NCBI GenBank assembly: GCA_043817075.1
Contig: JBDRHG010000014.1
Span: 21,989 to 85,988, forward strand
DNA: 64,000 bases
Direction of reading: 5' to 3'
Source of the DNA: an archaeon
GTDB lineage: Archaea > Nanobdellota > Nanobdellia > Woesearchaeales > JAADFO01
The notes beneath the pieces are model-generated. The model was not told where the DNA came from. It saw nothing but the letters and a program-made list of their open reading frames with translations, and did not search any database. Both the position numbers and the translations under genes were made by a program. How positions within the stretch are numbered: the stretch's first letter is position 1; each line of letters starts with the position of its first letter. Positions 59,887 through 62,819 of the stretch are shown in pieces.

Positions 59887-59930
59887 CTCCGGTCGACCGA
59901 AGCCATCTTTTTCTTCTCTTCCTGTTTCAA

Positions 59931-59950
59931 TGAGCTGTTAGGTTAACGTC
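59931..59950. repeat. left terminal inverted repeat
   Basis: TGAGCTGTTAGGTTAACGTC, preceded by the target duplication TGTTTCAA. Confidence 0.8.
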
Positions 59951-60017
59951 ATCTTCTACCGATTTATTTTCAATAATATTTTTATAGTCGGGCCCCGTAC
60001 TCGAATTCGGAACTCAG

Positions 60018-60692
60018 ATGAAAGCCGACGAATTTCGGAAAAATGTACTTGTGGTATTGCCAAAACAGTACCGTCTCCTCTTGGGATGCTATTTAAAGAA
60101 TCCTCAGGCTTCGTACAAAGAGATTATCAATGATACTGGCATGAGTGCAGCTATCATTGCACATGCGAAGCATGATTGCATGAACTTGGGGTTCATGACA
60201 AATGGGTCGGGATGTAATGTCACGCCCACAGGTAATTTATTTTTAAAGTTACAATCTGACTCAAAAGAGGAGTGGGAGGCACTTCATGATAATGCACTCA
60301 AGATAGACTTGTTCCGAGAATTACATAGTGGTCTTGGCTCTAAGCCTAAGCGACATGAAATCTTCGGTGTCTTGAGGGCTAAAGCTCCAGAAAATTATGC
60401 AAAACGAATCATTCAACGAATTGTGAGACGATATTATCAGTATGTTATAGGTATAAAAGTCATGCCTAAGGGCCGCTCATTAAAACCTAACGAGATAGGG
60501 AATCAAACGACCATCAACATTGTCAAGTGGACAAATGATTGTGATGTATGGAGTTTTCTCGTTAAGAAATATCATCTATCAGGAGATGAACTCAAGCACA
60601 TCATTGAAGCATTTCCAAAGTTGGCAAAGAAGGAAATTGATGAAGAGATGCTTAATGAGCATATAAAAAAAAAATATGGGGAGCTGGTGTAG
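60018..60692 (+). CDS. hypothetical protein (possible N-terminal wHTH), transposon cargo
   Basis: 224-aa AT-rich ORF. No recognisable catalytic motif. The last 15 nt overlap the 5' end of tRNA-Thr. Confidence 0.5.
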   Translation: MKADEFRKNVLVVLPKQYRLLLGCYLKNPQASYKEIINDTGMSAAIIAHAKHDCMNLGFMTNGSGCNVTPTGNLFLKLQSDSKEEWEALHDNALKIDLFRELHSGLGSKPKRHEIFGVLRAKAPENYAKRIIQRIVRRYYQYVIGIKVMPKGRSLKPNEIGNQTTINIVKWTNDCDVWSFLVKKYHLSGDELKHIIEAFPKLAKKEIDEEMLNEHIKKKYGELV

Positions 60693-60748
60693 TGATAGCA
60701 TCCCGGCCTTGTGAGCCGGTGATCCGGGATCAAATCCCGGGCTCCCCA
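60678..60748 (+). tRNA. tRNA-Thr(UGU), atypical D and T loops
   Basis: GGGGAGC/GCUCCCC acceptor, anticodon arm CCGGC-CUUGUGA-GCCGG, T arm CCGGG-AUCAAAU-CCCGG. The D loop AGUGAUA lacks the usual GG, and position 54 is A. Confidence 0.75.
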
Positions 60749-60754
60749 TTTTTT

Positions 60755-60828
60755 GGGCTGGTCGTCTAATCTGGAAAGGACAGGTACCTACTGAGTGTCG
60801 AATCCGGGTTCAAATCCCGGCCAGCCCA
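60755..60828 (+). tRNA. type-I tRNA with anticodon ACU (Arg-UCU-like body)
   Basis: GGGCUGG/CCAGCCC acceptor, D arm GUCU-AAUCUGGAAA-GGAC, anticodon arm GGUAC-CUACUGA-GUGUC, 4-nt variable loop, T arm CCGGG-UUCAAAU-CCCGG. Followed by a TTTTTT run. Confidence 0.7.
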
Positions 60829-60998
60829 CCGTTTTTTAATATAAAATGCCAGTGACAGTGGAACCCAGATAAATGCCTAAGAAGCATTTAGTGGCTGTCA
60901 CCAACAAAAACATGTACGATAACTTAGTTTATATAGAATGGGTATAATTTGTAACGAATTGGTATAATATCTAATGTTTTGATATTTGAACTGTATTT

Positions 60999-61160
60999 TT
61001 AGTCTTTCTCAATGATGAGTTTCTCATCATGAATTTCTGCTTCGAGTTCTTGTCCTGTTTTCCACCCTAACTTCTCTATGAGTTTGTTTGGTATGACAAT
61101 CCAGTGTTTCTGGTATGCTTTGCCTTTGTATTCGCTGTGTTTTTGGCTTTGGAGCTTCAT
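60999..61160 (-). CDS. AbrB/SpoVT-type (swapped-hairpin) small DNA-binding protein, 53 aa
   Basis: Hand translation: MKLQSQKHSEYKGKAYQKHWIVIPNKLIEKLGWKTGQELEAEIHDEKLIIEKD*. The segment IVIPNKLIEKLGWKTGQELEAEI..EKLII fits the AbrB-domain pattern. Below the ORF-track length cutoff. Confidence 0.6.
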   Translation of the reverse strand: MKLQSQKHSEYKGKAYQKHWIVIPNKLIEKLGWKTGQELEAEIHDEKLIIEKD

Positions 61161-61165
61161 AATGT

Positions 61166-61270
61166 CTTTGGGTACCTTATTCCTTTAAATAGTTTTTGGT
61201 ACCCGAAACTATGTTTTAGGTACACAATATTTGGGTACCAAAATACTTATATAGTTTATTGGGTACCCAA
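61166..61270. promoter_or_regulatory. array of five GGTAC[CA] palindrome-centred motifs between the divergent AbrB-like and transposase genes
   Basis: TTTGGGTACCTTA (61171), TTTTGGTACCCGAAA (61198), TTTAGGTACACAA (61219), TTTGGGTACCAAAA (61234), TATTGGGTACCCAAA (61262). All lie within about 100 bp, and the last ends 8 nt before the transposase ATG. Confidence 0.55.
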
Positions 61271-61275
61271 ACTGT

Positions 61276-62184
61276 ATGAGTCAGCAAATAAGATGTATCC
61301 ACTGCAAAGCCACCAACTACACCAAGAAAGGCTTTCGCAAGACCGAGAACCGAGGAAAAATCCAGAAATACCAATGTACAGAGTGTGGTCAGTACTTCAC
61401 CAATGATGAAGGTTTCTACCGTATGCGAAACTGCGAGAAGATTGTCACGATGAGCGTTGATATGTACCTATCAAATCTGTCCTCTCGTAAGATGAGGAAT
61501 CAGTTAAAGCGACATATGGATACGAAGATAAGTCACGTCTCCGTCCTTGATTGGGTGCGTAAATACGTTCTGAAAGTCCAGCACTACATTGAGAAGTTCA
61601 CGCCGAAACTGTCCGGTAAGTTCTATGTGGACGAAACGGATATTCCGAGGGGTTGCAACACGAAAAAGAAGGGCGGTGACAAGTTCTGGTGTTGCGTCGA
61701 TTGGGAAACCAGATACATCAACGCCACCATGTACAGTCCGAAGAATCAAAGCGTAGCGGAAGCCACGAGGTTTCTTAAAAAGACTGTTAAGCATGGTAAA
61801 CCGAAATTCATCCAGACTGATGCGGCAAAGTTTTACCCTAAAGCCATGAGACGATGTTTCTCCACGAACACAACTAAGGGATTCACTATTGGCGGAGAGA
61901 AGCGAATAGGTGTTGAACACCGTATTAACAACGTCAGCAAGACCAAGAAGCATAACGTAAGAATAGAAACTGTGTTCTCAAAGATTAAAGATCGTGTGGA
62001 TGACTTCCGAGGAATCAAAGCCCTATGGAGTGCCCCAATACTTCTCGCAGGAATAGTCTTGCAACATAACTTTATCGAGGCCCACACCACGACAGGAGCA
62101 ATACCTTCAGAACTCGCAGGAATAGGTTATCAAACAGGAGAAAACAGATGGTTGGAACTTATTAGAGTTTCCGCTTATTCTTAA
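61276..62184 (+). CDS. DDE transposase with N-terminal zinc ribbon (IS6/IS240-like)
   Basis: Zinc ribbon CIHCKATNY...YQCTECGQYF. DDE candidates are FYVDETDI, FIQTDAAKFYPKA and NVRIETVFSKIKDR, with a LQHNFIEAH tail. The pattern is that of DDE_Tnp_IS240 as I recall it. Confidence 0.7.
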   Translation: MSQQIRCIHCKATNYTKKGFRKTENRGKIQKYQCTECGQYFTNDEGFYRMRNCEKIVTMSVDMYLSNLSSRKMRNQLKRHMDTKISHVSVLDWVRKYVLKVQHYIEKFTPKLSGKFYVDETDIPRGCNTKKKGGDKFWCCVDWETRYINATMYSPKNQSVAEATRFLKKTVKHGKPKFIQTDAAKFYPKAMRRCFSTNTTKGFTIGGEKRIGVEHRINNVSKTKKHNVRIETVFSKIKDRVDDFRGIKALWSAPILLAGIVLQHNFIEAHTTTGAIPSELAGIGYQTGENRWLELIRVSAYS

Positions 62185-62698
62185 TTTTTTTAGCGAGAAT
62201 AATGGATTTTCTCGCATTAAAAATTATGTGAACAATCATAAACAACAACGTCGATAACGCAATTATACTTAGAACAAGTATCACCAATGAGAATGATGCA
62301 AAAGAAAAACTAATTGAAAAATACACAGAAACGGCCAGATTAAAAATCATCAGATAAATAAAAAAAGTTTTGCAAAGAAATGGAAATGCCTTCGCTTTAC
62401 TCAGCCGATTAATCAAAGTTTTATCGGAAGTACTAATATTTCCACCATCCTTAAAACCATAAGAAATGATTAAATCATCACGAATTTTAATGTAAATGAT
62501 CGACACAAGGATAGACACAAATAATAAAATTCCATATGACAAAGAAGGCCACTTATTCGATAGAATCCACCCATACACAAATATCGGAGCATACACCCCA
62601 ATACCTCTAACAATCTTCTCAAAGTTAAGCAAATCAAGTATATCCATAGCTAACGCCAATACATATACATCGACCATATTTAAAGATTTGTTCTCCAT
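62162..62698 (-). CDS. hypothetical membrane protein, transposon cargo
   Basis: 178-aa very AT-rich ORF with 4-5 TM spans. Its 3' end overlaps the transposase 3' end by 23 nt. Confidence 0.5.
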   Translation of the reverse strand: MENKSLNMVDVYVLALAMDILDLLNFEKIVRGIGVYAPIFVYGWILSNKWPSLSYGILLFVSILVSIIYIKIRDDLIISYGFKDGGNISTSDKTLINRLSKAKAFPFLCKTFFIYLMIFNLAVSVYFSISFSFASFSLVILVLSIIALSTLLFMIVHIIFNARKSIILAKKIKNKRKL

Positions 62699-62734
62699 TC
62701 ACCAAAAACTATTACAATAAACGCCATCTCAGGT

Positions 62735-62754
62735 GACGTTTACTTAACAGCTCA
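62735..62754. repeat. right terminal inverted repeat
   Basis: GACGTTTACTTAACAGCTCA, followed by the target duplication TGTTTCAA. Confidence 0.8.
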
Positions 62755-62819
62755 TGTTTCAATAACCTTTAAATACCCTCTCCTGTTATCGTCCTCGCTA
62801 TGGCGCCGCAAAAAGAGAT

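Follow-up and report, generated by a model that had tools for sequence, protein, structure and literature searches.

A Transposon-Borne tRNA Gene with an ACU Anticodon and an Arginine-Like Body in a Woesearchaeales Genome

This study concerns a gene for a transfer RNA (tRNA) with the anticodon ACU, here called tRNA(ACU), in a 64,000-nt stretch of contig JBDRHG010000014.1 (positions 21,989 to 85,988) from a Woesearchaeales genome. That whole stretch is referred to as the window, and the organism as the host. The gene is a real, intact, class-I, supernumerary tRNA gene carried by a transposon, in which it is preceded by a second cargo tRNA gene, tRNA(UGU), and by an open reading frame (ORF) called ORF224. 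The gene does not belong to the housekeeping set, and it does not amount to a change in the genetic code. As to its function, we tentatively favor the possibility that it is a weakly expressed, dual-identity tRNA that would be charged with arginine (Arg) and would read only AGU, a serine (Ser) codon. Archaeal tRNA genes with A at position 34 (A34) are nearly unheard of, and none has been reported in a split codon box. tRNA(ACU) could be an instance of natural mistranslation in organisms other than bacteria and eukaryotes, and is a candidate for the horizontal spread of such a trait.

Structure and Identity Elements of tRNA(ACU)

A tRNA gene with the anticodon ACT was called by ARAGORN at 60755–60830 on the + strand. 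The Rfam model RF00005 covered 60755–60828 end to end (model positions 1–71) with a score of 47.1 bits (E 6e-7), the gathering score being 29. The gene and its anticodon positions are as follows:

60755..60828, + strand: tRNA(ACU), 74 nt; A34 = 60790, C35 = 60791, U36 = 60792

Read from the sequence, the acceptor stem GGGCUGG/CCAGCCC has seven Watson-Crick pairs and is followed by U8 and C9. The D stem GUCU/GGAC has 4 bp, one of which is U-G, and the D loop, AAUCUGGAAA, which reads ..UGGAAA, contains G18, G19, and A20. The anticodon loop is CUACUGA (C32, U33, A34, C35, U36, G37, A38). There is no long variable arm; the variable loop GAAU has 4 nt, and A15 and U48 form a Levitt pair. The T stem CCGGG/CCCGG carries the T loop UUCAAAU; the discriminator base is A73. 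All of the nucleotides of a canonical elongator tRNA were present: U8, A14, G18G19, A21, U33, a purine at 37, G53, U54-U55-C56, A58, and C61. The cloverleaf, the ACU anticodon, and the missing long arm reported in the preliminary description of this DNA were thus borne out by ARAGORN, Rfam, and the sequence reading. That the tRNA is dead, as that description had suggested it might be, is not shown, because all stems and universal tertiary nucleotides are intact.

The host genome gave 31 Rfam tRNA matches, many of them intron-bearing. They include Ser(GCU) and Ser(UGA), with long variable arms of 14–16 nt and G73; four Arg tRNAs, namely Arg(UCU), Arg(CCU), Arg(UCG), and Arg(GCG); and a canonical Thr(UGU) that has an intron, a GCCUCC... 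acceptor, and U73 (C18:15203-15296). Because the host already owns Ser(GCU), four Arg tRNAs, and Thr(UGU), both cargo tRNAs are supernumerary. tRNA(ACU) has neither of the two hallmarks of tRNA-Ser, the long variable arm and G73; with no long arm and with A73, it is not a normal tRNA-Ser. Nor does it have an anticodon for Arg codons (NCG or YCU), since ACU pairs with the Ser codon AGU.

To see what type of body it has, we compared the tRNA tandem by BLAST with 400 genomes from the order. The closest matches to tRNA(ACU) were Arg(CCG) of genome G085 (81% over 63 nt), Arg(GCG) of G006, Gly(GCC) of G003, G154, and G198, and Arg(CCG) of G233. When the acceptor stem and anticodon loop are left aside, 53 core positions remain, at which identity to tRNA(ACU) was 42/53 for Arg(CCG) and Arg(GCG), 37–39/53 for Gly(GCC), 32/53 for the host Arg(UCU), and 29/53 for the host Arg(CCU). 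The anticodon loop differs from that of Arg(CCG), CUCCGGA, at positions 34 and 36 only, and the acceptor stem agrees with that of the G233 Arg(CCG) at six of seven pairs, the seventh being compensated. In G233, this Arg(CCG) lies in a chromosomal tandem, Glu(CUC)-5 nt-Arg(CCG) (L235:1471-1624), which aligns with both cargo tRNAs and is ~68% identical across both genes. Between the two tandems, five of the six anticodon positions are changed and none of the other eight loop positions.

Arg identity depends mainly on A20, C35, U/G36, and A/G73, and what marks Ser identity, animal mitochondria apart, is the variable arm together with G73 (PMC9976931). Compared with this Arg rule, which comes from bacteria and eukaryotes, tRNA(ACU) has A20, C35 with U36, and A73; C32, G37, and A38 also fit Arg. 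In the host set examined, an A following G18G19 was confined to the four Arg tRNAs, one Met tRNA, and tRNA(ACU), and the Rfam alignment agreed on its being position 20. These results support a body that appears Arg-like, of the CGN-reading rather than the UCU type, and not cleanly separable from Gly(GCC). The preliminary description had likened the body to tRNA-Arg(UCU); the Arg identity nucleotides A20, C35, U36, and A73 are indeed there, but the UCU type does not agree with the core identities. Its proposal of a simple U34-to-A origin is likewise unsupported, since the likeliest parents differ at both 34 and 36 and the sole comparable cargo tRNA, which is in genome G221 and is described below, has G34. 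Judged from its nucleotides, an Arg identity set joined to a Ser anticodon would make tRNA(ACU) a dual-identity tRNA, with the bodies of Gly(GCC) and Ala(GGC) being nearly as similar.

The partner tRNA(UGU) has a 7-nt D loop without G18G19, the T loop AUCAAAU (A54), G37-A38 as in Glu tRNAs, and A73. Its nearest bodies are Gly(UCC), Pro, and Glu, and it aligns with the Glu(CUC) of G233. Unlike the Thr tRNAs that belong to the host, it does not carry the acceptor signature GCC.../U73, and its charging is for that reason likewise uncertain.

Position 34 and the Reading of AGU

Archaea are described as having neither A34 tRNA genes nor the deaminases TadA/ADAT (PMC11066159), and only three ANN anticodons, all in four-fold boxes, were counted among 10,517 archaeal tRNAs in GtRNAdb (bioRxiv 10.64898/2026.05.15.725136). 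In the host, no tRNA besides tRNA(ACU) has A34. The statement in the preliminary description that archaea are not known to use A34 is in line with the literature, but it does not hold for a related genus, that of G221. In this genus a Thr-bodied, chromosomal tRNA-Thr(AGU) was found in all six sampled species and tRNA-Leu(AAG) in four (L259:26-99(-) and L268:152-235(+) in G221; L288-L292, L298, L299, and L304 in five related species). Neither Thr(GGU) nor Leu(GAG) was seen among the 37 tRNA matches of G221, and no TadA-like match was found in that genome, which is 99% complete. These tRNAs are conserved archaeal cases of A34, which apparently stays unmodified; with no TadA detectable in G221, the only near-complete member of the genus that was examined for it, they bear on why A-starting anticodons are otherwise avoided. 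Further A34 calls of 88–98 nt (Val-AAC at L023, Pro-AGG at L248, Ser-ACT at L273, and Phe-AAA at L278) were rejected as intron-bearing tRNAs misread by ARAGORN without its intron mode.

Two host genes have the cytidine deaminase (CDA) fold. The first is the closest TadA relative of the host:

G000:C14:88841-89161, ~3 kb beyond the end of the window: guanine/guanosine-deaminase-like CDA-fold gene

This gene was rejected as a TadA on its sequence scores, because it gave 137 bits with guanine and guanosine deaminases (PDB 1wkq) as compared with 80 for TadA, and 88 with the NCBIfam TadA model, for which the cut-off is 150. The second gene was rejected as well, being similar to deoxycytidine monophosphate deaminases of the ComEB type. 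Since no TadA/ADAT enzyme was found in the ~90%-complete host assembly, inosine at position 34 of tRNA(ACU) is unlikely. In vivo, an archaeal tRNA with an unmodified ACU anticodon reads AGU (9.4%) and does not read AGC (PMC11066159).

Of the Ser codons of the host, AGT is the rarest, with 3.6 per 1000 codons in 685 long ORFs. In three ORFs of the transposon it reaches 15.6 per 1000 (11 codons), 4.3 times the host value. Three of the four AGT codons in the transposase gene (S86, S154, and S252) lie at columns that are Ser in 12/12 homologues. AGU thus means Ser for the element, and a tRNA(ACU) that inserted Arg would therefore be no code change; recoding in that sense, which the preliminary description had raised, is contradicted by these three invariant positions. 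An Arg-inserting tRNA(ACU) would damage the transposase unless it were kept scarce.

The Transposon and Its Relatives

The cargo element occupies 59931–62754 (2824 bp) and is bounded by 23-nt terminal inverted repeats (TIRs) and an 8-bp target duplication. Its features, other than tRNA(ACU) itself, are as follows:

59923..59930: left target-site duplication, TGTTTCAA; the identical 8-mer is at 62755–62762, and the two copies lie directly outside both TIRs
59931..59953, + strand: left TIR, TGAGCTGTTAGGTTAACGTCATC; 20/23 match to the reverse complement of 62732–62754
60018..60692, + strand: ORF224, orphan passenger, 224 aa; TTTTTATA box ~35 nt upstream of the ATG
60678..60748, + strand: cargo tRNA(UGU) (Thr codon ACA), Glu/Gly(UCC)-like body; Rfam 59.7 bits; ARAGORN Thr(UGU) at 60677–60749
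60749..60754, + strand: T6 spacer, archaeal terminator-like, 6 nt, between tRNA(UGU) and tRNA(ACU)
60832..60837, + strand: T6 run, likely terminator, 3 nt past tRNA(ACU)
60999..61160, − strand: predicted AbrB/MazE-fold small DNA-binding protein, 53 aa, convergent with the tRNA pair; PF04014 MazE_antitoxin 30.6 bits (cut-off 24.7), antitoxin-like PHROG matches
61171..61267: four GGTACC-centered palindromes, presumed operator, between the AbrB-like gene and the transposase gene
61276..62184, + strand: transposase, 302 aa, with an N-terminal CxxC...CxxC zinc ribbon and DDE_Tnp_IS240 (IS6 family); PF13610 39.4 bits (cut-off 27)
62162..62698, − strand: ORF178, hydrophobic passenger, 178 aa; no family match (Pfam, PHROGs, PADLOC)
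62732..62754, − strand: right TIR, 20/23 match to the left TIR
62755..62762: right target-site duplication, TGTTTCAA, the same 8-mer as the left copy

The TIRs, the duplication, and the IS240-type transposase substantiate the earlier view that the tRNA is the cargo of a mobile element. The element is present once in the host genome, a metagenome-assembled draft of 1.5 Mb in 26 contigs that is ~90% complete. At 60–62 kb the GC content falls from about 53% to 41%, the host value being 52%. The insertion is flanked by genes for an hxlR-type regulator and a class-I aminoacyl-tRNA synthetase; the orthologous synthetase genes of G001, from the same genus, and G003, from the same family, have no tRNA pair upstream.

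ORF224 had no matches in Pfam, PHROGs, or PADLOC and no homologue among 5.8 billion proteins or in the 400 genomes of the order; its AlphaFold model is unusable because the predicted local distance difference test (pLDDT) score was 38.6. The stop codon of ORF224 (60690–60692) falls 13 nt inside the tRNA(UGU) gene, and a cut by RNase P at the 5′ end of tRNA(UGU) would therefore remove it from the ORF224 mRNA. PADLOC gave no defense-family match. The hexamer GGTACC occurs eight times in the window, five of them in the element (four in the palindrome array and one in tRNA(ACU)), and its density in the genome is 0.11 per kb. The copy in tRNA(ACU), at 60783–60788, forms the 5′ strand of the anticodon stem, at the cost of two Watson-Crick pairs.

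In many host tRNA genes a B recognition element (BRE)/TATA box lies at about −40 to −28, its consensus being around TTTATAAA, and many have a T run on the 3′ side. Upstream of tRNA(UGU) there is only an A-rich stretch at −19 to −7, and tRNA(ACU) has no TATA box at the usual host position of −40 to −28 and a T6 run directly in front of it. With no promoter of its own and this T6 run, tRNA(ACU) could be produced only by read-through, and read-through of an ORF224-tRNA-tRNA transcript is the likeliest route of expression to judge from these signals.

[quoted passage not shown] In common with IS6 members and the "transporter insertion sequences" (tIS) (PMC7986276, PMC6807381), it has DDE_Tnp_IS240 and short TIRs, and it has an N-terminal zinc finger like that of the longer IS6 clades. 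It is not compact (about 0.7–0.9 kb with the transposase alone), since its 2824 bp hold four further genes or RNAs. Classical IS6 elements are ~0.8 kb long and contain the transposase alone, with one passenger-bearing member in ISfinder, and the IS6 review describes no tRNA passengers (PMC7986276). In contrast, the 67 distinct related elements that we found bounded by the same TIR consensus (loci L065-L228) have a median length of 3.2 kb (range 1.3–6.8 kb), and therefore nearly all carry passengers. Homologues of the transposase, with 58–71% identity, turned up in 69 of the 401 genomes sampled from the order, and many Woesearchaeota contigs from groundwater and sediment metagenomes contained them as well.

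Besides the host element, tRNA genes were found in only two of the 67 bounded elements:

L076:4846-8493: element of G221, with the 8-bp duplication TCATTTCT on both sides; contains an N6/N4 DNA methyltransferase, a PD-(D/E)XK nuclease-like ORF (restriction-modification pair), and a tRNA pair
L075:6114-8734: element of G122, with a cargo tRNA at L075:7559-7646(-)

In the G221 element, tRNA(GCU) is a class-I tRNA of 74 nt without a long arm; it has C33 in place of the universal U33, and the bodies most similar to it are those of Arg(CCU) tRNAs from the same genus. The accompanying tRNA(UGU) has a Gly(UCC)-like body without G18G19. The G122 cargo tRNA is of class II and Ser-like, with a long arm and G73, and has the anticodon AAC, for the Val codon GUU. 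Because SerRS, the seryl-tRNA synthetase, ignores the anticodon, this tRNA(AAC) would be an even cleaner mistranslating candidate than tRNA(ACU). Body and anticodon were mismatched in all five cargo tRNAs of the three elements, two of which have A34. These results demonstrate that insertion sequences can carry tRNA genes. In metagenome-assembled genomes, such tRNAs should be kept out of the host decoding set and out of any inference of code change.

Exact-pattern scans of genome contigs and viral contigs for the anticodon arm, with position 34 left as N, were empty; metagenomes were scanned for the transposase. A search of the 401 genomes for the class-I pattern A20 plus U33-R34-C35-U36 gave 10 matches, about as many as the reversed control, and the sole real tRNA among them was tRNA(ACU). 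By BLASTP, ORF224 had no similarity to the ORF upstream of the G122 cargo tRNA, nor had the AbrB-like protein any to the small ORF beside the G221 tRNAs; a conserved protein-plus-tRNA cassette is therefore not demonstrated.

Possible Roles of the Cargo tRNA

The reading that we tentatively favor would have the following course. The cargo tRNAs may have descended from a chromosomal tandem of the Glu-Arg(CCG) type, both anticodons later being swapped, to UGU and ACU, while C32, U33, G37, and A38 stayed parent-like. A34 is most likely unmodified, and pairing would for that reason be essentially with AGU alone. A20, C35, U36, and A73 would fit the arginyl-tRNA synthetase (ArgRS), and the lack of a long arm and of G73 would exclude SerRS; if charged, tRNA(ACU) would therefore bring Arg to AGU. 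Its output would be kept low, being made solely by read-through of the ORF224-tRNA(UGU) transcript, and the element would tolerate or exploit it as a restrained Ser-to-Arg mistranslator. The paired stems, the concentration in the anticodons of the changes relative to G233, and the mismatch in all cargo tRNAs of the three elements speak against mere decay.

Several observations weigh against this reading. Archaeal Arg identity has never been measured experimentally (PMC9976931, Table 1). Overall similarity places the body nearly as close to Gly(GCC) as to Arg, and the acceptor/T-arm half is that of the host Ala(GGC) save for G3:C70 in place of G3:U70. The Rfam score is the lowest among the full-length tRNA matches of the host genome; the anticodon stem GGUAC/GUGUC is weak, with two G-U pairs among its 5 bp; and G37, rather than A37, is atypical for a reader of A-starting codons. 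The tRNA has no TATA box and lies directly behind a T6 run. With the host genome ~90% complete, a TadA gene could be absent from the assembly alone. Insertion of Arg at AGU would fall on three Ser residues that are invariant in the transposase of the element itself. The degenerate partner tRNA(UGU), the C33 of the G221 analogue, and the single-copy status of the element also argue against a useful decoder. Finally, no closer copy of the element was found in the collections searched, and tRNA(ACU) is known from a single copy, hence without evidence from covariation or conservation.

It is rather unlikely, although the next best explanation to consider, that the pair is an inert passenger, which was captured with flanking DNA and is out of translation, so that its anticodon drifted; the cloverleaf would then be intact because the change was recent or because folding is costless. 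The missing promoter and the upstream T6 agree with this, as do the low Rfam score, the weak anticodon stem, and the fact that the minimum-energy nearest-neighbor fold is a rod (−32.8 kcal/mol) 7.8 kcal/mol below the cloverleaf (−25.0 kcal/mol). Several bona fide host tRNAs likewise fold better as something other than a cloverleaf. Also in agreement are G37, which is ill-suited to ANN codons, the partner without G18G19 and U54, the C33 of the G221 counterpart, the rarity of tRNA cargo in this IS family (this element and 2/67 others), the single copy of the element, and the orphan status of the neighboring ORF224. However, all 21 stem pairs and the universal tertiary nucleotides have been kept, including the covarying A15-U48. 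The clustering of changes in both anticodons (five of six positions relative to G233, with the other eight loop positions the same) is unlike neutral decay, and the five cargo tRNAs of the three elements are mismatched, not randomly lesioned.

The mistranslation reading can be extended from tRNA(ACU) to the related elements, and in this wider form we consider it doubtful. A clade of IS6-like transposons of Woesearchaeota (DPANN) would spread purpose-built dual-identity tRNAs, with an Arg body and ACU or GCU or with a Ser body and AAC, for restrained codon-specific mistranslation of Ser-AGU as Arg and of Val-GUU as Ser. A34 would confine the damage to one rare codon, and the convergent AbrB-type regulator together with transcription by read-through only would hold the dose low. 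If true, it would be the first case of a mistranslation device that is mobile and also the first one from archaea.

Improbable, in our estimate, is a tRNA-like element with no role in translation: an RNase P/RNase Z processing or stabilizing signal for the ORF224 transcript, a site for the AbrB-like protein that acts in regulation or as a roadblock, or a decoy for tRNA-targeting defenses, with the anticodon free or deliberately non-cognate. The ORF224 stop codon inside the first tRNA, the position of the pair at the end of the ORF224 transcription unit, and the convergent AbrB/MazE-fold gene 170 nt downstream would suit such a role, and irregular tRNAs located close to toxin-antitoxin and transposon genes are suspected of being non-translational in part (PMC5389517). 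The anticodon stem also holds GGTACC, the hexamer of the operator array, but without flanks rich in T and in A such as those in the operator consensus; it may be there by chance (about 2%), and we regard it as a probable coincidence rather than an operator site. A search of the rest of the element for an antisense tRNA copy found no antisense match of >8 nt, the PADLOC result likewise speaks against such a role, and processing signals need neither an intact anticodon arm nor A20.

We give very little credence to a codon-supplement tRNA that inserts Ser, by which an AT-rich element would supply its own decoder of a codon rare in the host and common in its genes. The AGT frequencies in element and host and the invariant transposase Ser residues encoded by AGT would fit, G34-to-A34 shifts have occurred in the related genus (Thr AGU, Leu AAG), and a Ser-tRNA(ACU) is harmless in E. 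coli (bioRxiv 10.64898/2026.05.15.725136). Against it, tRNA(ACU) has A73 and no long variable arm, although Ser identity needs the arm and G73 (PMC9976931) and the host Ser tRNAs own both. Moreover, the host Ser(GCU) already covers AGU by wobble. A sequence or assembly variant, with U or G actually present at position 34, so that the tRNA would be a normal Arg(UCU) cargo tRNA or, like that of G221, one with GCU, is hardly credible: the genome is a metagenome-assembled draft in 26 contigs and Thr(UGU) plus Arg(UCU) is a classic mobile-element tRNA set (phage T4), but consensus errors are rare, and because position 36 would still differ from the CGN-type relatives and G37 would stay, the oddity does not rest on one base.

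tRNAs of phages and mobile elements, such as the phage T4 cluster, serve codon supplementation or escape from anticodon nucleases. The cargo described here resembles them in being extra, in including a UGU tRNA, and in belonging to an element with a lower GC content than its host (41% vs. 52%). However, phage-type tRNAs have bodies that match their anticodons and reside in viruses or large elements, whereas here an insertion sequence of 2.8 kb carries two mismatched tRNAs. In tRNA gene recruitment, too, a new anticodon arises on the body of another family; a single anticodon change, described by Saks et al. in Science in 1998, reportedly turned E. coli tRNA-Arg(UCU) into a working tRNA-Thr(UGU), and the cargo pair UGU/NCU has the two anticodons linked there. 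In recruitment the charging switches as well and decoding stays correct; for tRNA(ACU) the predicted charging (Arg) and the codon (Ser) disagree.

Allo-tRNAs and other irregular tRNAs (PMC5389517, PMC7609411) likewise have non-cognate anticodons and an association with mobile or addiction genes, and some are suspected of being non-translational. They are bacterial, with 8/4 or 9/3 acceptor/T stems and Ser identity, whereas tRNA(ACU) has the canonical 7/5 arrangement and an Arg-type set; the Ser-like G122 tRNA(AAC) is their closer functional analogue. With the A34/I34 tRNA-Arg(ACG), which is accompanied by TadA in bacteria or ADAT in eukaryotes and is to be seen beside the rare unmodified A34 tRNAs such as the Mycoplasma Thr-AGU (PMC3711424, PMC11066159), tRNA(ACU) shares an Arg-type body, A34-C35, and G37, and the anticodon ACG differs at position 36 only. 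Unlike tRNA-Arg(ACG), it occurs in a host with no TadA detected and belongs to a split (2+2) box, in which I34 or relaxed reading by A34 would cross amino-acid boundaries.

The tRNAProA, tRNAProN, and tRNAProT of Streptomyces and Kitasatospora, which occur with ProRSx (PMC10404621, PMC11415595), are like tRNA(ACU) in being supernumerary and in joining the body for one amino acid to the anticodon for another. Their anticodons AGC, AUU, and AGU likewise have A34, which narrows reading to the U-ending codon. These tRNAProX genes are bacterial and chromosomal, usually lie beside a dedicated synthetase paralogue, and have been demonstrated to mistranslate; tRNA(ACU) is an archaeal, transposon-borne candidate with an Arg-type body and a Ser anticodon. 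The searches of Pfam, PHROGs, and PADLOC found no dedicated synthetase paralogue in the element, and the adjoining gene for a class-I synthetase belongs to the host, lying beyond the target duplication. The insertion lies 5 nt upstream of a TTTAAATA box (62767–62775), ~25 nt before the ATG of that synthetase gene; because the element ends so close to the box, the insertion may have replaced the BRE region of the gene.

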